From positions 73,963 to 104,336 of IMG/VR virus record IMGVR_UViG_3300009788_001732: a stretch of 30,374 nt of DNA; one strand, 5' to 3'. The notes under the pieces are model-generated. The model was not told the origin of the DNA. It worked only from the letters and a program-made list of their open reading frames with translations, and made no database searches. The stretch comes from a virus (Duplodnaviria; Heunggongvirae; Uroviricota; Caudoviricetes). Made by a program: the position numbers and the translations under genes. Shown here piece by piece: positions 146 to 11,014 of this stretch; the stretch's first letter is position 1, and the number at the start of each line of letters is the position of its first letter.

Positions 146-589
146 TTATTCTGGAAATTGCTGAGCTTCGTCGACTTCAACAGACGACAATGCTGTGTTG
201 AGTTCAATTTCAGAAGATCGAGTAACATCGTTGTCCGGCATATCAATAGCATCATCGAGCGTCAGATCAACAACATCATCGACCGAGCTTTTTCGCATAC
301 TGAATGGCCCCTCAGGCTGGGGTGTTTCGACTGGCGGGGCAGTATTGGTCGGCGGCTCAGGTTTAACAGTCTCGTCTTCGTAGACATAACCGCGCCCGAC
401 AGGTTTTCCTTGCATATCACAAGGAATGATTCTAATTTCGCATTCTTCAATAGGTGCCGGCAACTTAATCGAAGCTTCGGTAGCACCTGGTTGGACACCA
501 CCATTTCGATTCAGTTTGTCATTTTGGTAAACTTCAATTCGAGTTGGGCAGTCACTTACTGGGATTGGAATTGTGATTCGTTTGGTCAT
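146..589 (-). CDS. Hypothetical protein with beta-rich N-terminus, Pro/Thr linker and acidic tail
   Basis: Same strand as neighbours; GGGAGAAAG upstream of the ATG; PEPPTNTAPPVETPQP linker. Confidence 0.7.
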   Translation of the reverse strand: MTKRITIPIPVSDCPTRIEVYQNDKLNRNGGVQPGATEASIKLPAPIEECEIRIIPCDMQGKPVGRGYVYEDETVKPEPPTNTAPPVETPQPEGPFSMRKSSVDDVVDLTLDDAIDMPDNDVTRSSEIELNTALSSVEVDEAQQFPE

Positions 590-712: not shown

Positions 713-1015
713 TCACTGTTCCTCAGGCTCATCTATATCAGCGTGCCAAAAATCTTCCGGGCATCCTTCTGTTGGCCACGCCAACTTATTCTTTTCGTCT
801 TCAATTGTTGATACCCGTTTAATATGGCAACCGCATGAGTCGCATTCACCGTGTGTGTTGGGTTTATCTTTACTAGGCGTAAAAAATTCACACCTTTGAC
901 AATGATTGTCGAATATCTCAAAGATATAATCATCATCACGGAGGGGTTTGCCTGCGGCTTGCCATCTCCAATAAGCACGCGCGAAGTTCATACCCTTCTT
1001 GATGAAGCTCACCAT
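713..1015 (-). CDS. Cys-rich, probably metal-binding hypothetical protein
   Basis: CQRC, CDSCGC and GCP..FW motifs; packed directly after the upstream ORF. Confidence 0.75.
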   Translation of the reverse strand: MVSFIKKGMNFARAYWRWQAAGKPLRDDDYIFEIFDNHCQRCEFFTPSKDKPNTHGECDSCGCHIKRVSTIEDEKNKLAWPTEGCPEDFWHADIDEPEEQ

Positions 1016-1024
1016 ACTAAATGC

Positions 1025-1372
1025 TTAGAGGATGAGGAAGAGAACGATAATTAACAATAGTTTCAAGATTGGGACAATGTTTTCCAGAATCCAGTTCCAA
1101 ATCGATTCCCAATCAAAGTTAAAGTCAAACAAATCACGAAGCGGCCCGCCGTGAGAACGTCGATACATTCGATGAACACGCCGCCGCCATAATCTGTGTG
1201 CATGAACAAGTTGTGACTGACCCTGTTGATCGTTGTATACCACAGCAGGGCAAGCTACCAATTTATCGTAAACGGACACATCTTGTGCGGGAATGCGACC
1301 GGCTCTCTTCTCCTGTTGATATGCGCGTTCTACAACGTCGTGGAACACTCGGAGATTGTCGCTATTTTGCAT
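1025..1372 (-). CDS. Hypothetical protein with C-terminal amphipathic helix and membrane anchor
   Basis: Ends DWESIWNWILENIVPILKLLLIIVLFLIL; start overlaps the stop of the thioredoxin gene. Confidence 0.75.
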   Translation of the reverse strand: MQNSDNLRVFHDVVERAYQQEKRAGRIPAQDVSVYDKLVACPAVVYNDQQGQSQLVHAHRLWRRRVHRMYRRSHGGPLRDLFDFNFDWESIWNWILENIVPILKLLLIIVLFLIL

Positions 1373-2066
1373 TATGTGTTCCTTGAGTCTTCAGACCCTG
1401 TTGCTCTTGAGTCTTCAGATGTTTGGCGATCTTATTCGCCGAGGTCACACCGACAAACTTGGCCTTAGATTTGCCACCGTCCATAATAACTGTCGTGGGC
1501 ACCGCACGAAGTTTGAATTGTTCCCATACTTGTGGGTACGTGCTTGCTTCAACATAAAAGACGATATATCCGTCTGCTCGAAGTTTATCAACCACCGGAT
1601 ACATACGAGGACAATATTTACAATTCTTCGAGCCGAATACAACAGCATATGAATGTTTACAGTTGTCTGCTTTACACACCTGTGGCGGGCACCGGCAATT
1701 TTCTTGGCCACATTCACAATCATATTGCGTTATAATTTTCGCCCAAACAATCGGCGTCGTTTCTTTTCTTCGAGTTTCGCGATAGCTTCCTTTGATGGTT
1801 GATACTCTTGTTTCGATGTTATTGGGTCCGCTGGTATCTCTCCCGATTGCTCCATATCGTCTTGTACATCGGCCACAGCTTCCATGATTCCCATAAACTC
1901 CTTGAATGTTTTTATCCAATTTATGGTTTTGCCCATCCCGATCTTGATAATCAACCCGCGTAATAGGCGCTTCAGTTGATTCCAAAGTTGCAGCAGACGT
2001 AGTTTGTTCATGGCAGGGGCTCCAAACCATACTTACGCAAACAAGTGCAAGTAATAGGTTTCTCAT
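1362..2066 (-). CDS. Exported thioredoxin-domain protein with Cys-rich middle segment
   Basis: Signal-like MRNLLLALVCVS; thioredoxin pattern VVFGSKNCKYCPRM...FKLRAVPTTVIM (CxxC plus cis-Pro VPT); GGGAG RBS. Confidence 0.85.
   Translation of the reverse strand: MRNLLLALVCVSMVWSPCHEQTTSAATLESTEAPITRVDYQDRDGQNHKLDKNIQGVYGNHGSCGRCTRRYGAIGRDTSGPNNIETRVSTIKGSYRETRRKETTPIVWAKIITQYDCECGQENCRCPPQVCKADNCKHSYAVVFGSKNCKYCPRMYPVVDKLRADGYIVFYVEASTYPQVWEQFKLRAVPTTVIMDGGKSKAKFVGVTSANKIAKHLKTQEQQGLKTQGTHNAK
1730..2011 (-). CDS. Possible 93-aa protein nested in the +1 frame of the thioredoxin gene
   Basis: Own GGAG RBS 8 nt before the ATG; helical N-terminus, acidic middle, basic end KKRRRLFGRKL. Confidence 0.4.
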   Translation of the reverse strand: MNKLRLLQLWNQLKRLLRGLIIKIGMGKTINWIKTFKEFMGIMEAVADVQDDMEQSGEIPADPITSKQEYQPSKEAIAKLEEKKRRRLFGRKL

Positions 2067-2087
2067 TATTAATCTCCCTCGAAAGAT

Positions 2088-3095
2088 TTAGTACAATTCA
2101 TAATTGAGATACTGTTTCGGATAGCCAATATAGTTTGACATCGCAAAACTATCGTCTTGAGACAACATGCCGTCGATAGTGTCAGCGTCAACCCAAAACG
2201 AACCAGCCGGCTGGCCCAGCTTAGTCGGGCCACTAATCCAATTTGGACCCCAACTGTTAATGATAAGGCCGCCTGGACGACCACCTGTGTCATCCATACC
2301 AATCATTAACATACTGTGATACCAAGTGCCCGTCTTCTTTGCGAAACCTTCTGAGTCTCGCTTGGAACGAAAACCATAGTTTGAGCAAATTGAAACTGGA
2401 TACCCATTGTAAATGGCGTCCCGCGCTTCTTTCCACCTAGTAACTAAAGTAATCGTTTTGACCGGATGCTTCTTAGCAAGAGGTTCAAGTTCATCTGGGA
2501 CACCGCCACCCCAGGGAGTGCAGCGATGACATTTGTGTGCCCACTTACGTGATTTTGATCCACTGTAATTAGTGAAGTCGTATTTACCATCGAGGTAGGG
2601 CTGTCTCAAAAGGATGCCATAATCACGGCACCATCTGCCAGCCCAACTTCCATGCATACCGCTGCCTCTCATCTGACCGTTGCCTATTTCTACACGGCCG
2701 CCGGCATAAATAATTTCAGTCGCACACTTGGCTACCCATCGACCTTTGCCATGAGCAATCTGTATTGAGTCCAGAATATCAACTCCCAGACCCCAACTAT
2801 GTGCTACACAATCCCCCGTTGTTTGATCATGCGGAACTAGTTTCCCACCGATAGCTTTTTCAAAGAACTTCCACAGAAGTGCTTTTCTATTGGCCCCTGA
2901 GCCATCTAATTGCTTAGCTGCTTGAGCAAACATTGGTACACGCTGACTGGACTTGAAATTAGCGGTTTCCCGCCGATCTGGTATCCAACCTGCATAAATC
3001 GGTTTTTCTGTAGCCTGCGCCAATAATGTCTTGGGCGTGACTAGTCCTACAATGAGGGGTCCGCTAGCGGCTAAAAAATCCCTTCGACTCAGCAT
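2088..3095 (-). CDS. Tat-exported papain-like cysteine peptidase (C1A-like)
   Basis: Twin-arginine signal MLSRRDFL; catalytic motifs Q..GDC, YHSM, IINSWG. Confidence 0.9.
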   Translation of the reverse strand: MLSRRDFLAASGPLIVGLVTPKTLLAQATEKPIYAGWIPDRRETANFKSSQRVPMFAQAAKQLDGSGANRKALLWKFFEKAIGGKLVPHDQTTGDCVAHSWGLGVDILDSIQIAHGKGRWVAKCATEIIYAGGRVEIGNGQMRGSGMHGSWAGRWCRDYGILLRQPYLDGKYDFTNYSGSKSRKWAHKCHRCTPWGGGVPDELEPLAKKHPVKTITLVTRWKEARDAIYNGYPVSICSNYGFRSKRDSEGFAKKTGTWYHSMLMIGMDDTGGRPGGLIINSWGPNWISGPTKLGQPAGSFWVDADTIDGMLSQDDSFAMSNYIGYPKQYLNYELY

Positions 3096-3110
3096 GGGAA
3101 ATTCCTTTAG

Positions 3111-3851
3111 TTATTTAAGCGTCTCTGCATACTCCCTCAAGCCTTGCGCAACTTCTTTCCAAATTTGAGCATGATCTTTTACGTTGTTCAACTCTCCAAG
3201 TTTCGCCATTGCTTTCAATTCTTGCATTAACGAATCCAAGAAAGGTGTCCAGTTCTCAAGATTGCTGCCCAAGGCATCTCGATTTGACGTAGAAGCTGCC
3301 TGTACTAACTCTGCCGGCGTATTAAATGTATCTTGTTCAATAACGATCGCCACCGATGAAAATGACTGTGCTAACTTAATAGCATCGTCACGTTTATCAG
3401 GAGAATCTACGTCACCCGCCCAGTCTTTGACTTTCTCGACAATGTTTTTACCTGGTTCAGGAGGTGGTCCTGGTGCTTGCGACCCTGTAACTTTAATCTT
3501 GTGGACACCTATATCTGAATCATCATCTAATGCACACGAGATCATGAATGTATAGGTCAGATTCTTATTACCAGTCCCACAAATAATAAGTCTATCGTCA
3601 TTAAAGAATAGCAAAGCAGGGGGTATTGGCTCGACTGCATAATCAAAACCACCCCCCAGGCTTTCTGACAGATCAATGATGATCATGTCGCCTATCTTCA
3701 CTTTATCCGGGGCTCTAATGTTGACTTCAGCCCCACCTTCGCGAGGTGTTCCATCACTATAGACATGATCCTGATGGTTTGTGTTAATGATTATTGCAGC
3801 TAGGCAAATGCCTATTACAATTGTACTCATCCATAGGATGTGACGCTTCAT
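3111..3851 (-). CDS. Exported or membrane-anchored protein with beta-sandwich-like N-domain, Pro linker and helical C-domain
   Basis: N-terminal hydrophobic helix; APGPPPEPG linker; GAGGGAG RBS. Confidence 0.8.
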   Translation of the reverse strand: MKRHILWMSTIVIGICLAAIIINTNHQDHVYSDGTPREGGAEVNIRAPDKVKIGDMIIIDLSESLGGGFDYAVEPIPPALLFFNDDRLIICGTGNKNLTYTFMISCALDDDSDIGVHKIKVTGSQAPGPPPEPGKNIVEKVKDWAGDVDSPDKRDDAIKLAQSFSSVAIVIEQDTFNTPAELVQAASTSNRDALGSNLENWTPFLDSLMQELKAMAKLGELNNVKDHAQIWKEVAQGLREYAETLK

Positions 3852-3870
3852 GTCTAATCTCCCTCAGTGA

Positions 3871-3981
3871 TTATTTCTTAGGCTTTGATTTGCTTTCATT
3901 TTCTGGCTTACGAGTGCGGTCGCCTGGTCTTTCGATAGACTTTTTCATAGACTTTTTAATAGACTTAATGTGTTTTGGCAT
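3871..3981 (-). CDS. 36-aa Lys-rich peptide MPKHIKSIKKSMKKSIERPGDRTRKPENESKSKPKK
   Basis: Read manually; fills the gap in the operon; 12-nt tandem repeat encoding KSIK/KSMK/KSIE. Confidence 0.5.
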   Translation of the reverse strand: MPKHIKSIKKSMKKSIERPGDRTRKPENESKSKPKK

Positions 3982-4043
3982 CGTTATTTCTTTCGCACGT
4001 TTTCAAACGGTCTTTTGTCTTCGGCTCAGATATGTTTAGTGCA

Positions 4044-4391
4044 TCAAAAACATATTGCTGCCGATTGATCTTGTCCGCCCCACCGCTCACTATCTTCCGC
4101 AAAGCAGTTTTCGCACCTTTCTGAATAAAGTGCTTCTACTGGTGCTCCACATCTACAAAACTCGTTTGACCTTGGAAGCAAGCGTTGCTTAAACTTTCGA
4201 TTTTTACGACGTTTGATATTCGGCCGTATTTTATAACTAGGGCGACATGCGACGCCATTAAGTGGTACGCAGGCAAAAGCTTGTTGAAGCCGAGATTGCC
4301 AACATATAGGCGTACTTTTTGAGTTGTGTTTTCTGTTTTGAAGAAAATGATGAAGCGGAGCAACCCGGACGTTATTAGTGTTGTCAGGCAT
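4044..4391 (-). CDS. Basic hypothetical protein with C-terminal Zn-ribbon-like motif
   Basis: CRCG...RCENC; operon position. Confidence 0.55.
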   Translation of the reverse strand: MPDNTNNVRVAPLHHFLQNRKHNSKSTPICWQSRLQQAFACVPLNGVACRPSYKIRPNIKRRKNRKFKQRLLPRSNEFCRCGAPVEALYSERCENCFAEDSERWGGQDQSAAICF

Positions 4392-4398
4392 TCAGAGA

Positions 4399-4596
4399 TT
4401 ACTTAACCGTAACAGATTGCTTGGTGACGAGACGAAGGATGATATTCACGACACCGAGCACAGTCGCCGCGATACCCGCCATTTGTGGATTGTCTTGAAT
4501 GAGTTCACTTCCGCCGATTGCGGTAATAGCACCGGCAGCAGCAGTGACCAAGTTTATCCAAAAGGTCTTCGAGCTTGTAATAGGCTTGCTATTCAT
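4399..4596 (-). CDS. Holin-like two-TM membrane protein
   Basis: MNSKPITSSKTFWINL...VVNIILRLVTK pattern common in small phage membrane proteins; two hydrophobic helices; start chosen from GGGAGA RBS. Confidence 0.7.
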   Translation of the reverse strand: MNSKPITSSKTFWINLVTAAAGAITAIGGSELIQDNPQMAGIAATVLGVVNIILRLVTKQSVTVK

Positions 4597-4646
4597 GTCA
4601 TTCTCCCATGGTGTAGGCAAAAGGTCATCGTAAGGGTCGGCCATGA

Positions 4647-5192
4647 TTATTTCTTTTCCTCGGTATTATCGGCCTTAATGATAATGGACGCGATCGCGTC
4701 ACTCAACTCGCGCAAATCATCTTCCCAACCATCATATTTATCTTCAACCATCAAAGCCACAGCCTGAACAATCTCTTGTCCCCAAATGATAAGTGCTGGT
4801 TTCGCTAGAAGAAGGCCGGAGGCCGTTGCTAAGCGGTGAAGAGAGGCGGTGACTTTTTCCGCCTTCATAATGAGGTCTGTGACAGGACCAGAGTTGACAA
4901 GCATTGAAGCTTCATCTGTCATCAGCTTCGTTCGTGCAGCAATGGTCGCATTGAGAACCATCAAATTTTCTTTGAGAATCTTGATTTCATCAAGTTCGCC
5001 GCCTTCAACCGTAATGCGACGCTGAAACTGTTCGGCGAGATATGTATTCATTTCTTCACGAGCTGCGTTGCTTGCGCCTCCATGTACCGAACAATAGTCA
5101 CTTTTTTCACACGACTCATTCCAGCACTGCCCCCCACAGACTGCCGTCGCGCGGCAACGATCAGGGGCATCCCCGTCCTTGACTCGTCGCAT
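4647..5192 (-). CDS. HGG-motif Zn-finger plus helical protein, putative terminase small subunit
   Basis: C..TAVCGGQC...YCSVHGGAS; helical remainder; first gene of the leftward operon. Confidence 0.55.
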   Translation of the reverse strand: MRRVKDGDAPDRCRATAVCGGQCWNESCEKSDYCSVHGGASNAAREEMNTYLAEQFQRRITVEGGELDEIKILKENLMVLNATIAARTKLMTDEASMLVNSGPVTDLIMKAEKVTASLHRLATASGLLLAKPALIIWGQEIVQAVALMVEDKYDGWEDDLRELSDAIASIIIKADNTEEKK

Positions 5193-5255
5193 GCGATCCC
5201 TATGTCAACAAAATATTTGTCGTATTGACTATAGTATAACCTGAACAGACGTATT

Positions 5256-5471
5256 TTGGCGAAAAATCGTTATAATTGTGCTTTTTGCGAGAAGCTGACC
5301 AATACCGCGTGCCCGATTGGGTCAATTGGTGCCTGTAAGGAGCTGATTGACATCCTAAACCACCCGCCAGAAGACATATTGTCTCGGGCGAGAAAGAATG
5401 GCAACCGAAAATGGCTGTCTGGCAGTAGACGACCGAAAATGGCCGTCGACCCGACATGGTCGAGAATTTGA
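5256..5471 (+). CDS. Small Cys-containing hypothetical protein
   Basis: CAFC...C...C; first ORF of the plus block. Confidence 0.5.
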   Translation: MAKNRYNCAFCEKLTNTACPIGSIGACKELIDILNHPPEDILSRARKNGNRKWLSGSRRPKMAVDPTWSRI

Positions 5472-5496
5472 CATTCTGGCTGCTGTATGGTATGTT
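5468..5496 (+). promoter_or_regulatory. Sigma70-type promoter
   Basis: TTGACA-17 nt-TATGTT with TG extension, 16 nt before the GAGGT/ATG of the next gene. Confidence 0.75.
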
Positions 5497-5511
5497 GAAA
5501 TTGAGGTCATA

Positions 5512-5793
5512 ATGATACGACAATACAGAATCGTAACAAAAACGCCCGATTCCAAAGAGACGATGCTCCAGCCTGGCGTTCACGCTGCACTGTACAACAT
5601 CCCTGAAGTTCGTGACAGTATAGCGTTTCTTGAAACACAGCCCCACGTTGAAATGATTGGTATACGCCTCAATACTCGTTTCTATGGTATCGTTGTCATT
5701 CAAGCACCAGAGTTGCAAGAGCGCCATTTTCAGTTAAGAGATTTCAGTGGATTTGGGCCAGGGCCGGAGAGACACACATATGGTAAAGATTGA
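5512..5793 (+). CDS. Hypothetical protein
   Basis: Start reassigned from the track using the GAGGT RBS and upstream promoter. Confidence 0.65.
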   Translation: MIRQYRIVTKTPDSKETMLQPGVHAALYNIPEVRDSIAFLETQPHVEMIGIRLNTRFYGIVVIQAPELQERHFQLRDFSGFGPGPERHTYGKD

Positions 5794-5980
5794 TTGTACT
5801 GTGTGCAGCAAAGAATTTGATTCAAATGAACTCGATGCGAATGGAGTATGCGAACCTTGCAGTCCTGATGACTCATTTATGTACGGCTTCAGCGATGACG
5901 ATTTCAGAGACACTCCAGATGATGAAATAGACGACTGGGAAGGGGACGACTGGGAGGATGACGAATGGGAAGTGTCCTAA
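5780..5980 (+). CDS. Zn-finger protein with very acidic tail
   Basis: CTVC...CEPC then a D/E/W-rich tail; GGAGA RBS. Confidence 0.7.
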   Translation: MVKIDCTVCSKEFDSNELDANGVCEPCSPDDSFMYGFSDDDFRDTPDDEIDDWEGDDWEDDEWEVS

Positions 5981-6642
5981 AGCCGCGCGATCATATGAAC
6001 CTTGCCAATATGTGCAAGTCAAACTACGCCTTACATAACTGGTGGAGTGACTGGATCATTGAATCGACGGATCACCTTCATAAATTCAGTGTAGAAAACA
6101 TGGCTTTCTATTTTCTGCGAAGCCAGGGCGTTTTGTATCTTACCATTCGTGGATCAGATGACATTTGGGACTGGATGTATAATATTCGTGCCGGTTCACT
6201 TCTTACGAACGGCATTCACCAAGGTACCTACCTCCTCCATAAGAAAATCTGGCCCAAAGTCAGAGAGTTTGTTAATGATAATTGGTGTCCTCATGACTGC
6301 GATCAACTTGTTATAGGTGGTCATAGTATGGGTGGAATGGTCGCACTTACGATTCTCCGTGAGCTTATTGCCGTAGAAAACCGTCCTGTCCGAGCGACGG
6401 CAGTGTTTGGGACACCGTCGCCGTTTAGTCTCTTTCGCGGTAAACACGAAGCAAGCCAAGACTGGACAGCAAATCTGACCCGTTATGTCAACGGAAATGA
6501 CATCGTGCCACGCCTATTGAATTGGCGAGGTAATTACCCTGTCGGCAAGGAAGTTAAGATTGGTAAATCAGCGCGGTGGCGGTTCTTTAAAAGTTTTTCT
6601 GATCATAACATGGCCGAATATGTAAAAAGCATGTCGCGTTGA
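5965..6642 (+). CDS. Class 3 lipase (alpha/beta hydrolase)
   Basis: IRGSDD..DW..N lid region, nucleophile GHSMGG, NDIVP Asp, DHNM His. Confidence 0.9.
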   Translation: MGSVLKPRDHMNLANMCKSNYALHNWWSDWIIESTDHLHKFSVENMAFYFLRSQGVLYLTIRGSDDIWDWMYNIRAGSLLTNGIHQGTYLLHKKIWPKVREFVNDNWCPHDCDQLVIGGHSMGGMVALTILRELIAVENRPVRATAVFGTPSPFSLFRGKHEASQDWTANLTRYVNGNDIVPRLLNWRGNYPVGKEVKIGKSARWRFFKSFSDHNMAEYVKSMSR

Positions 6643-7675: not shown

Positions 7676-8035
7676 ATGAATCAATCGTTAGATGGAGATG
7701 AAAGTGTTTTGAAAGCGTTGCTTAGTAAACAAGATGAGCAGATAGCTCTGCTTAAACTGCTTGTTCAAAAAAAGTATGAACAATCTCAAAGACTGTCTCA
7801 ATGGAAGAATAAGAACCCTGCGTTGGCTAAGCGCTGTCACGCGGCTGCTACAAAAGGCCAGGGACTCTTGGACCAAATGATTGATAAACTTGTGCAAATT
7901 CTTGAAGACACAGATGATGACCTTGATGACTATCAAAAACTGTTCGCAATAAGCGAATTCATAGATACACACGGGTACAAATTTCAACAATTTAGTATGA
8001 TACTTCAGACACTGGGCCAGTTAGGAAAAGCATGA
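7676..8035 (+). CDS. Helical hypothetical protein
   Basis: GGAG RBS; stop overlaps the next start. Confidence 0.75.
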   Translation: MNQSLDGDESVLKALLSKQDEQIALLKLLVQKKYEQSQRLSQWKNKNPALAKRCHAAATKGQGLLDQMIDKLVQILEDTDDDLDDYQKLFAISEFIDTHGYKFQQFSMILQTLGQLGKA

Positions 8036-8748
8036 AACAATTGTTTATGATATTGGCGGCCCTCTCCGTAACTACGCCGACCTTTGCACAGCTTCCAACT
8101 GTTACACAGATGGTGCCCGAGAGTGTCGTTCGCATTTATGTGAATGAAAACAGAGATCAAATACCTGATTCATATGGCTCCGGCGTATTGATTTCACCCA
8201 CACAAATCTTAACCAACTATCACGTTGTTGAAGACCGGCGCAAAGACCGCCGAAATAATAGTCGCGCAGTGCAGGTTCGTTTTGCAGATGGTTCACGCAG
8301 TTATGCAGTCGTTATCTCACAAAATAAACTGTGGGATATAGCTCTTTTAGGAATCCATGCAACTAAACTGACGCCCATTACCATCGGGAACCGTCCAAAG
8401 GCTGGCGACAAGGCGACAATTCAAGGCTTGGGACCTGATTACGAATACAAACAGCAGACGGGCACAGTCAGTGATGCCAAATTTCACCCAGAGTACCACT
8501 CTGACAAAACAGACTATATTGAAATCTTAGAAGTTCGTGCGCGTGGGGGTGACAGCGGTGGGCCGATTACCGACATACATGGAAATCTTGGCGGTCTTCT
8601 GCATGGCGCCAGTGATCAAAGCGAAAAACCTTATACTCAGGGCACAACGATCGATCGTATCCGAAAGGTTTTCGGGTCGAAAATGAAGCCTAGTCGAGTC
8701 GCTGAATCGGACTACACCCTCTACAAAGAAAAGTCAAATGAGAAGTAA
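8032..8748 (+). CDS. Exported trypsin-like serine protease (S1)
   Basis: Signal peptide; GSGVLI, TNYHVV (His), WDIALL (Asp), GGDSGGP (Ser). Confidence 0.92.
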   Translation: MKQLFMILAALSVTTPTFAQLPTVTQMVPESVVRIYVNENRDQIPDSYGSGVLISPTQILTNYHVVEDRRKDRRNNSRAVQVRFADGSRSYAVVISQNKLWDIALLGIHATKLTPITIGNRPKAGDKATIQGLGPDYEYKQQTGTVSDAKFHPEYHSDKTDYIEILEVRARGGDSGGPITDIHGNLGGLLHGASDQSEKPYTQGTTIDRIRKVFGSKMKPSRVAESDYTLYKEKSNEK

Positions 8749-10214: not shown

Positions 10215-10451
10215 ATGTACTTCAAAGTTGACAATGGTATACTGGCACCCGCAAAGCGTGGCATCGAGATCGACACCAGCAAGTACAAAGTGCAGATCAA
10301 CAGCAAACATTTTCAGTTGTCAGCCGACGACCAGCATCATAACTTTCTGATCGATTTTGGGATAAGCCAATCCAAGCGGAACACAGTTATCTGTGACAAT
10401 GCTGGTGAAATGCTTCACATTTTAGCTCTCATTAAAATGGCATTTGGCTAA
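10215..10451 (+). CDS. Hypothetical protein
   Basis: GGAG RBS; TAATG coupling to def. Confidence 0.7.
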   Translation: MYFKVDNGILAPAKRGIEIDTSKYKVQINSKHFQLSADDQHHNFLIDFGISQSKRNTVICDNAGEMLHILALIKMAFG

Positions 10452-11014
10452 TGGAAATCCTGAACTATCCGCACCCGATCCTACGGTTCAAGACACGGGA
10501 AGTAAAGAAAGTTGATGAGAACTTTCGTGAGCTTGCTGATGAGATGCTTGCAACTATGCGTGCTGAAAAGGGCAGCGGCTTATCAGCAAACCAAGTCGGA
10601 TTCCCATTTCGCATGCTTGTCGTTGATTACCAGGGCTCGGAATTCTGTTTAGTTAACCCCGTCGTCAAACCATTTGGTAAACCAAAAGCTAAAAAAGAAG
10701 GCTGCTTATCATTTCCGGACGTGTTGATTGAGATCAAACGTTGTACAAAATGTCACTTGATGGCGCATGACTTATATGGAAACTATATTGATCAAAATAT
10801 CAGTGGAGATTTGGCGAGGATTGTCATGCACGAGACGGACCATCTCGATGGCATGTTATTTATTGACAGACTGACAGAGTTGCAGCTAAAGTTTATTTAC
10901 CCACAATTAGCAGTAATGGACCGAGTTTGGAATTCTTCAGAACATAGCTTTCCTGCCGGCGCTTTCAATGAACTTTTGTATGATTACTGCGATGTAGAGC
11001 GCCCCACAACATAA
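10451..11014 (+). CDS. def: Peptide deformylase
   Basis: All three PDF motifs: GSGLSANQVG, EGCLS, HETDHLDG. Confidence 0.95.
   Translation: MEILNYPHPILRFKTREVKKVDENFRELADEMLATMRAEKGSGLSANQVGFPFRMLVVDYQGSEFCLVNPVVKPFGKPKAKKEGCLSFPDVLIEIKRCTKCHLMAHDLYGNYIDQNISGDLARIVMHETDHLDGMLFIDRLTELQLKFIYPQLAVMDRVWNSSEHSFPAGAFNELLYDYCDVERPTT

Follow-up and report, generated by a model that had tools for sequence, protein, structure and literature searches.

A papain-fold cysteine peptidase and a thioredoxin in a candidate lysis cassette of a phage that very probably infects planctomycetes

Tailed phages have holin-endolysin(-spanin) lysis cassettes, such as S/R/Rz-Rz1 of lambda and 13/19/15 of P22, and in lambdoid phages these genes sit just ahead of the terminase genes. 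Here we analyzed a run of minus-strand genes in a 30,374-nucleotide stretch of DNA (the window) from the Caudoviricetes virus record IMGVR_UViG_3300009788_001732, which encodes a cysteine peptidase of the C1 (papain) fold with a twin-arginine translocation (Tat) signal, an exported thioredoxin and small membrane proteins. The window covers the final 30 kb (73963-104336) of a record that is 104,336 bp long and 100% complete according to CheckV, and the whole-genome map of open reading frames (ORFs) places the module on the minus strand directly upstream of a GpA-type large terminase gene (TerL; genome 72319-74001, just outside the window; Pfam domains GpA_ATPase and GpA_nuclease), which is followed on the same strand by a portal-sized gene and structural genes. 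Similar to the lambda and P22 cassettes, the module has a late-strand position before TerL and small membrane proteins flanking a putatively envelope-directed hydrolase, and similar to endolysins in general, the hydrolase is found in signal-less, anchored and secreted versions. The key differences are that the enzyme is of the C1 proteinase type rather than a muramidase, transglycosylase, amidase or known peptidoglycan peptidase, that a thioredoxin and an immunoglobulin (Ig)/helical membrane partner are present while no spanin was recognisable on reading the ORFs, and that the membrane proteins of the module belong to no curated holin family. The analysis suggested that the module is probably a phage lysis cassette centred on a cysteine protease that works with a redox partner.

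Partial parallels are offered by other systems. Lyz of phage P1, a signal-arrest-release (SAR) endolysin, has a caged catalytic cysteine and reportedly becomes active when thiol-disulfide isomerisation frees it, and it resembles the peptidase described here in being an exported lytic enzyme pre-placed in the periplasm, with possible redox control of the catalytic cysteine and release on membrane de-energising; it differs in being a lysozyme with an intramolecular switch, whereas here the redox step would fall to a separate or sometimes fused thioredoxin, export is by Tat and not SAR, and we infer the redox control. The thiol reductase GILT works with lysosomal cathepsins, and plant thioredoxin h with papain-like proteases, so that both likewise pair a thioredoxin-fold reductase with C1 proteases, where it keeps the thiol reduced and opens substrate disulfides; these eukaryotic pairs are not gene-linked and are unrelated to lysis, and the analogy is functional only. 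The regulation of the SAR endolysin of phage Mu has been treated elsewhere (PMC9239132), and mycobacteriophage LysB is an esterase acting besides a normal endolysin (PMC8309991). LysB is comparable in that its role in phage lysis is matched to an envelope layer which is peculiar to the host and is not peptidoglycan, but a normal endolysin accompanies it and none was detectable here.

The five genes described by an earlier sequence-only reading of the window were all found on the minus strand, and a further ORF, zn115, was absent from the gene list of that reading. The gene run is composed as follows (TM, transmembrane segment).

4647..5192, minus strand: Cys3His zinc-ribbon and coiled-coil protein, 181 aa, first gene of the run
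4399..4644, minus strand: hol81, two-TM membrane protein, holin-like, 81 aa, with two weakly hydrophobic, Gly/Ala-rich segments
4044..4391, minus strand: zn115, basic protein with C-terminal Zn-ribbon, 115 aa, conserved in 19 loci (jackhmmer), weak DZR match
3111..3851, minus strand: exp246, predicted membrane-anchored periplasmic protein, 246 aa (AlphaFold2 model and synteny)
2088..3095, minus strand: Tat-signal C1 (papain-fold) cysteine peptidase, 335 aa (motifs and fold), proposed lytic effector
1362..2066, minus strand: exported thioredoxin, 234 aa, Pfam Thioredoxin above cut-off, proposed redox partner
1025..1372, minus strand: ctm115, predicted tail-anchored membrane protein, 115 aa, with basic cytoplasmic N-domain and C-terminal TM

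The sequence-only reading had recognised no muramidase or amidase within the window, and this now holds for the whole 104,336-bp genome, in which no canonical peptidoglycan hydrolase was found when all ORFs of 70 aa or more were compared with Pfam at E<=1e-3 (selected ORFs at E<=0.5). A six-frame search was also performed on 20 carrier virus records (this genome and 19 others; eight are at least 90% complete, with sizes of 69-226 kb) using 11 families, namely Phage_lysozyme, Amidase_2, SLT, GH19, GH25, GH108, NLPC_P60, CHAP, M15_4, Amidase_3 and M23. The results showed no above-cut-off match in any of the 20 records, the GH19 and GH108 controls not having rung, and the full-genome search for a classical endolysin that the earlier reading had proposed thus returned no canonical family in the complete genome or the other carriers. 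The C1 peptidase itself gave no match to the lysozyme, amidase, SLT, CHAP, NlpC/P60, M15 or M23 families; that it may work like an endolysin is suggested by its context. A 163-aa 'C39-like' ORF (genome 16145-16636) was considered as a hidden endolysin and rejected, with no Pfam match at E 0.5 and no NLPC_P60 or CHAP match.

TerL relatives were also fetched independently of the peptidase (the best 80 of 444 contigs), and 25 loci had at least 4.5 kb upstream of TerL. A C1 gene was present in 21 of these 25 loci, 1.7-5.3 kb upstream of TerL, while the other four (and two cut loci) carried, at an upstream distance of about 3.7-4.4 kb, a signal-less C92-like enzyme of about 190-205 aa (240 aa as called in one locus). 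The two genes never occurred together in one of the TerL-related loci examined, and the record holding one of these four loci, 98% complete and 101 kb long, had no C1 match anywhere. Homologs of the C92-like enzyme at E 1e-13 to 1e-33 carry PF05708, and one bears the name 'Permuted papain-like amidase enzyme, YaeF/YiiX, C92 family', of the NlpC/P60 superfamily; a direct Pfam C92 match of the replacement enzyme failed, and the link rests on these homologs. The zinc-ribbon gene is kept upstream of both types of cassette, and the C92-type loci also keep zn115 and the thioredoxin, with hol81, exp246 and ctm115 replaced by a lipobox lipoprotein (about 190-217 aa) and a signal-peptide protein with a C-terminal TM (about 225-263 aa).

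L140, L158, L160, L163 and L179, about 3.7-4.4 kb upstream of TerL: C92-type cassette loci

Through the peptidase, 106 loci were collected (80 viral contigs from a collection scan, and 24 genome contigs and two metagenome contigs from a look-up by identity), and the partners in them were counted by profile searches. The most constant partner was exp246, whose gene immediately preceded that of the peptidase in 63 of the 68 viral loci with sufficiently long flanks, and in 18 of 23 genome loci. The thioredoxin was directly downstream in 69 of 79 viral loci, and a member of the ctm115 family, usually encoded just behind the thioredoxin, was present in 65 of 80. As a group, the partner genes recur in hundreds of phages and prophages, for the most part those of Planctomycetota. 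In unrelated contexts, the thioredoxin follows distant, signal-less peptidase homologs (L089 and L082), and a relative of exp246 precedes distant homologs in L059, L072, L055 and L088. Two kinds of gene fusion were also observed: on the chromosome of Schlesneria sp. T3-172 (L113) a 573-aa ORF joins a TM anchor, a C1 domain and a C-terminal thioredoxin, and hol81 is fused to exp246 in Planctomicrobium sp. SH661 (two copies, L105 and L106) and in a Planctomyces metagenome-assembled genome (MAG; L111). The fusions and the pairing in unrelated contexts argue that the peptidase, thioredoxin, exp246 and hol81 act jointly. The linkage of C1 protease, thioredoxin and holin-like gene, put forward earlier as a check, is thus conserved in related loci and reinforced by gene fusions.

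In the peptidase, Q91, C96, H260 and N280-S-W-G283 were invariant among 44 homologs, which bears out the earlier statement that the Q/C/H/N set of a C1A-type protease is intact. The enzyme has the oxyanion-hole Gln before the catalytic Cys and the catalytic His and Asn, the latter in the N-S-W-G motif, that characterise C1 peptidases, and the alignment with cathepsin H spans NSWG. The AlphaFold2 model (predicted local distance difference test, pLDDT, 90.9) is a two-lobed papain fold, with matches to xylellain 3OIS (VIA Z 23.4, root-mean-square deviation 3.0, 241 residues) and to cathepsins, pro-papain and papain (Z 17.5-20.5; papain 1PPN at Z 17.5 over model residues 68-322). The Pfam Peptidase_C1 (PF00112) score was 14.3 bits, under the gathering cut-off of 20.7, and the distant homolog in L113 just clears it with 21.1 bits; as judged from sequence, the peptidase would be a divergent new subfamily of the C1 fold and not a curated PF00112 member. 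In comparison to xylellain, cathepsins B/K/L/S and papain, it has the same Q-C-H-N set, NSWG motif, two lobes and an N-terminal extension aligned with their pro-regions, and is distinguished by 15-19% identity, the twin-arginine signal and its being phage-encoded. CHAP (PF05257), NlpC/P60 (PF00877) and C92 YaeF/YiiX (PF05708) enzymes share with it the clan CA papain-like fold and Cys-His core, but there is no sequence match, and the fold here is that of the full two-lobed C1 proteinases (Z 17-23). Mature papain aligns from residue 68 on, and residues of about 30-65 form a short extension that overlays the pro-regions and, judging from the model, may inhibit the enzyme; a classical I29 prodomain was not detected in the peptidase. 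In the closest clade an inserted loop (residues of about 186-197) contains a CxxC (H-K-C-H-R-C-T-P-W) that is missing in more distant homologs; it may bind a metal or serve as an additional redox site.

The N-terminus has an SRRDFL twin-arginine motif, a hydrophobic stretch and an AQA cleavage site, as expected of a Tat signal sequence, and the consensus RRxFL is kept in most homologs; the peptidase is predicted to be Tat-exported. Across the loci, the N-termini were of Tat type in about 60, carried a Sec signal, lipobox or TM anchor in about 14 (the TM anchor of the anchored variants is rich in Gly/Ala/Ser/Thr), and lacked a signal in about 32, among them a copy in L089 preceded by two small two-TM ORFs. 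By analogy, this variation in export resembles that of endolysins and was counted for lysis.

The peptidase family comprises 1,918 clusters at 50% identity (932 at E<=1e-30), and its ESM Atlas clusters are 91-96% viral; none of 301 homologs of close length has a name or a Pfam label, and tblastn with the peptidase gave no match in GenBank phage records. All 51 longer homologs (603-1,057 aa), considered as possible fusions to peptidoglycan-binding domains, proved to be intein/homing-endonuclease insertions (P0025, P0099, P0105, P0121-P0171, P0184 and P0185 were in the intein survey). Three insertion sites were found, between D95 and C96, right after H260, and right after N280-S-W-G283, and some homologs hold two inteins, with LAGLIDADG endonucleases. 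The sites appear to single out the catalytic motifs as what is most conserved and least dispensable in a gene that the phages cannot lose, and the inteins fit Tat export of a protein folded and spliced in the cytoplasm. To our knowledge, inteins have not been reported in a papain-type peptidase or a Tat-exported protein.

In the 234-aa thioredoxin, which has 12 Cys in all, a signal peptide and a Cys-rich linker precede the domain with CKYC, and the protein belongs to the Pfam Thioredoxin family (PF00085; 29.6 bits versus a cut-off of 23.5). The CKYC aligns with the CxxC of 47 homologs, in which the dipeptide is highly variable. According to a crude classifier, the thioredoxin is exported here and in about 23 loci; about 23 other loci combine a Tat-type peptidase with a signal-less, presumably cytoplasmic thioredoxin of 86-107 aa, and in about 10 loci the peptidase is signal-less and the thioredoxin exported. 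If the two proteins must meet, as the contact implied by the C1-thioredoxin fusion suggests, partners on opposite sides would have to wait for a breach of the inner membrane, which would make an AND gate at the time of lysis. The thioredoxin is retained whether the cysteine hydrolase of the locus is C1 or C92-like; together with the variable CxxC dipeptide, this favours action on the catalytic thiol of the enzyme, which fits no less well than action on the wall.

Among the membrane partners, hol81 has the consensus SKTxWxN-TM1-TM2-N(I/V)xLR and a family found in 38 loci. Two of 29 relatives match PHROG holin families (phrog_4712 at 2e-5 and phrog_34682 at 0.009), and hol81 of the window itself has no Pfam or PHROG match; being small, with at least one TM and encoded beside enzyme genes, it is a candidate holin by context. 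The model of exp246 (pLDDT 89) has an N-terminal TM helix, an Ig/PKD-like sandwich (40-122), a Pro-rich linker, which is conserved and lies between two well-folded domains, and a four-helix domain. It had no Pfam match, and the fold searches gave generic Ig/PKD matches only, with nothing for the helical domain and PKD leads only from the Atlas. Chagasin was not among the top fold-match rows in comparison to chagasin-type (I42) inhibitors, and as for a spanin, an N-terminal anchor is present but the periplasmic part is modelled as an Ig and a compact helical domain. No lipobox ORF was seen in the cassette on reading its ORFs, no systematic spanin search having been made.

A planctomycete is very probably the host of the phage, because the genome has a DUF1571 gene and the cellular genomes bearing relatives of the module are nearly all Planctomycetota. 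The DUF1571 gene (genome 607-1449, minus strand, outside the window; E 8e-73) encodes a signal-peptide protein, and the genome matches that retain partner genes are nearly all Planctomycetota. The family was described from Rhodopirellula, and the phage copy is probably host-derived. The planctomycete envelope is described as sodium dodecyl sulfate-resistant, Cys/Pro-rich protein stabilised by disulfides (PMC3035269, citing Liesack 1986), which backs the background on a proteinaceous, disulfide-rich envelope given by the earlier reading. Prophage copies were found in the cultured strains Planctomicrobium sp. SH661, Schlesneria sp. T3-172 and Kolteria novifilia Pan216.

A lysis function is thus the preferred interpretation, because no canonical hydrolase was found, the module lies before TerL, the C1 and C92-like enzymes have a complementary distribution, the partner genes are linked and the export modes are as varied as those of endolysins, and further because the catalytic residues are invariant, inteins occur at all three motifs, the host link is to planctomycetes and two relatives of hol81 match PHROG holins. 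The sequence-only proposal of a non-canonical lysis cassette gained from the absence of a canonical endolysin, the conserved linkage and the C92-like occupant of the same slot, and its 'terS-like' label was not confirmed for the gene at 4647-5192, which has sub-threshold matches only (HGGxSTG at 17.7 bits versus a cut-off of 29; phrog_10899 at E 0.017). A profile of 24 homologs of this 181-aa protein, in which C13, C23, C34 and H37 are invariant or nearly so, matched nothing in Pfam or among PDB sequences; the protein could be a small terminase or a late regulator.

Several points weigh against lysis. The C92 family has no proven endolysin function. The unmatched known families leave room for an unrecognised hydrolase, the more so as the GH19 and GH108 controls gave no signal, and sub-threshold matches were seen to Peptidase_M15_4 in L116 (G011:25877-25969; 17.9 bits) and to M23 in L117 (G004:117112-117273; 14.5 bits), each in an ORF of about 670 aa. 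The L116 and L117 carriers have signal-less peptidases, and these M15/M23-like ORFs may be tail-associated wall-degrading domains. No cell-wall-binding domain was fused to any of the 51 long homologs, hol81 was detected in no more than 30 of the 80 viral loci and does not occur in the C92-type loci, and there is no obvious electron source for an exported thioredoxin. Most carrier loci belong to one TerL lineage, so that synteny is partly inherited and is weak evidence alone. Furthermore, signal-less homologs without any partner gene were found in Mucilaginibacter (L096 and L099), a Balneolaceae MAG (L093) and possibly Novosphingobium (L102); the first three sit in ordinary chromosomal neighbourhoods, and in the L102 neighbourhood a longer opposite-strand ORF masks the peptidase gene in the ORF map. 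Stand-alone cellular homologs thus occur outside Planctomycetota, and a wall-disulfide mechanism must accommodate them, as it must the loci where one of the two enzymes lacks an export signal and the retention of the thioredoxin beside either hydrolase.

In the proposed lysis mechanism, the peptidase would fold in the cytoplasm, be exported by Tat and accumulate in the periplasm, where it could be held in check by residues of about 30-65, by exp246 and/or by an oxidised catalytic thiol. Late in infection, the small membrane proteins would permeabilise or depolarise the inner membrane, and the thioredoxin would supply or keep the catalytic thiol reduced and possibly also reduce disulfide cross-links of the envelope; the peptidase would then cut a load-bearing envelope polymer and the cell would burst. 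Where one partner has no export signal, the membrane breach would unite both and serve as the AND gate. Given lysis, disulfide-linked envelope proteins are slightly more likely than not to be the substrate, peptidoglycan stems or cross-links follow with roughly a one-in-three chance, and another polymer is improbable. The full reductase-plus-protease mechanism, in which the thioredoxin reduces both the caged C1 thiol and the disulfides of a Cys/Pro-rich wall and the protease dismantles that wall in an AND-gated manner, is a tentative proposal that we consider possible but, as a whole, less likely than not; if true, the load-bearing layer of planctomycetes, at least at lysis, would be protein and not murein.

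The best surviving alternative keeps lysis and changes the chemistry: the peptidase would cut stem peptides or cross-links of peptidoglycan, like the CHAP and NlpC/P60 endolysins of its clan, with the thioredoxin only keeping the Cys reduced in an oxidising periplasm and with no part for disulfide-linked proteins of the wall. It draws on the alternative occupation of the slot by an NlpC/P60-superfamily (C92-like) enzyme with the thioredoxin kept in both cases, on the widely varying CxxC dipeptide, which gives no sign of a tuned substrate reductase, and on the peptidoglycan reportedly present in planctomycetes. The fold and motifs are, on the other side, those of true C1 proteinases (xylellain, cathepsins and papain), we know of no such proteinase that cuts peptidoglycan, and the long homologs yielded no fusion to a cell-wall-binding domain. 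This sub-case of lysis appears rather unlikely.

A late envelope function apart from lysis was given a still smaller chance. The protease would here trim surface or periplasmic proteins of the host, such as a receptor, and thereby block superinfection or keep progeny off debris, while other genes lyse the cell. The export of the proteins, the late-strand genes beside membrane proteins and the Ig/PKD domain of exp246, which could bind a surface polymer, agree with such trimming. But exclusion genes are usually patchy, whereas the module is near-universal in its lineage, with inteins at the catalytic sites; trimming also sits poorly with the position-for-position replacement by another hydrolase, and no other lysis candidate was found in the eight carrier records that are at least 90% complete.

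It is very unlikely that the module is primarily a processing system, in which an exported phage protein would be matured by the peptidase, for instance exp246 through a cut in the Pro-rich linker that frees the helical domain, while folding or reduction of this substrate would be left to the thioredoxin. The very tight pairing of exp246 with the peptidase (63/68) and the conserved linker are what such a system would show, but it leaves the C92-type replacement in loci lacking exp246 and the missing endolysin unexplained, and processing could equally be a sub-step of lysis. That the genes have no joint function, being held together by common descent with a thioredoxin for nucleotide metabolism, or encode virion or morphogenesis components, is scarcely credible, for although most loci share one TerL lineage, PHROG places phage thioredoxins under nucleotide metabolism and the genes lie between a putative terS and TerL, there are two independent gene fusions, the pairing persists in unrelated contexts (L082, L089, L059, L072 and L088), and the Tat/Sec signals and membrane anchors cannot be reconciled with assembly of virions in the cytoplasm.

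The flanks of the module contain further features. Two minus-strand genes separate it from TerL:

713..1015, minus strand: Cys-rich (CxxC...CxxCxC) protein, 100 aa, between module and TerL, in close relatives only (8 loci), no family match
146..589, minus strand: acidic-tailed protein, 147 aa, directly upstream of TerL, in close relatives only (10 loci)

On the other side, a 175-aa minus-strand ORF at 5200-5727 looks non-coding, with an odd composition and conservation in only two near-identical relatives, and it was not counted with the module; these roughly 550 bp more probably hold divergent regulatory DNA that separates the late run from the plus-strand genes. A promoter and terminator scan gave no useful excess over the shuffled background. 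Divergently transcribed beside the module, the gene at 5965-6642 (plus strand) encodes a class-3 lipase or cutinase-like alpha/beta hydrolase (Lipase_3); as a LysB-like partner it was rejected, being without a signal peptide and linked to the module in one of 82 loci. The plus-strand block also encodes a trypsin-like serine peptidase (8032-8748; Trypsin_2, E 2e-17) and a peptide deformylase (10451-11014; E 6e-42), and genes for both are also near the module in the relative L002/L003.

No paper was found in the literature on Tat-exported or papain-type phage lysis enzymes, nor on the lysis of planctomycetes by phages, and the way in which the module most likely bursts the host is not known to have been described for any phage. 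If the interpretation as a lysis cassette is true, a peptidoglycan hydrolase is not always needed for phage lysis, and proteases paired with a redox partner would form a new class of lytic effectors and also provide enzymes against protein-walled or disulfide-stabilised envelopes. It would also give a name to a large (about 1,900 clusters), almost purely viral and unannotated family together with four partner families, and this family, with inteins inserted at each of the three catalytic motifs, would stand out as an unusual host of such elements. The prophage copies in cultured strains make the lysis hypothesis testable now, and the target of the phage enzyme would provide a handle on the dispute over whether disulfide-linked protein or peptidoglycan bears the load in the planctomycete envelope.

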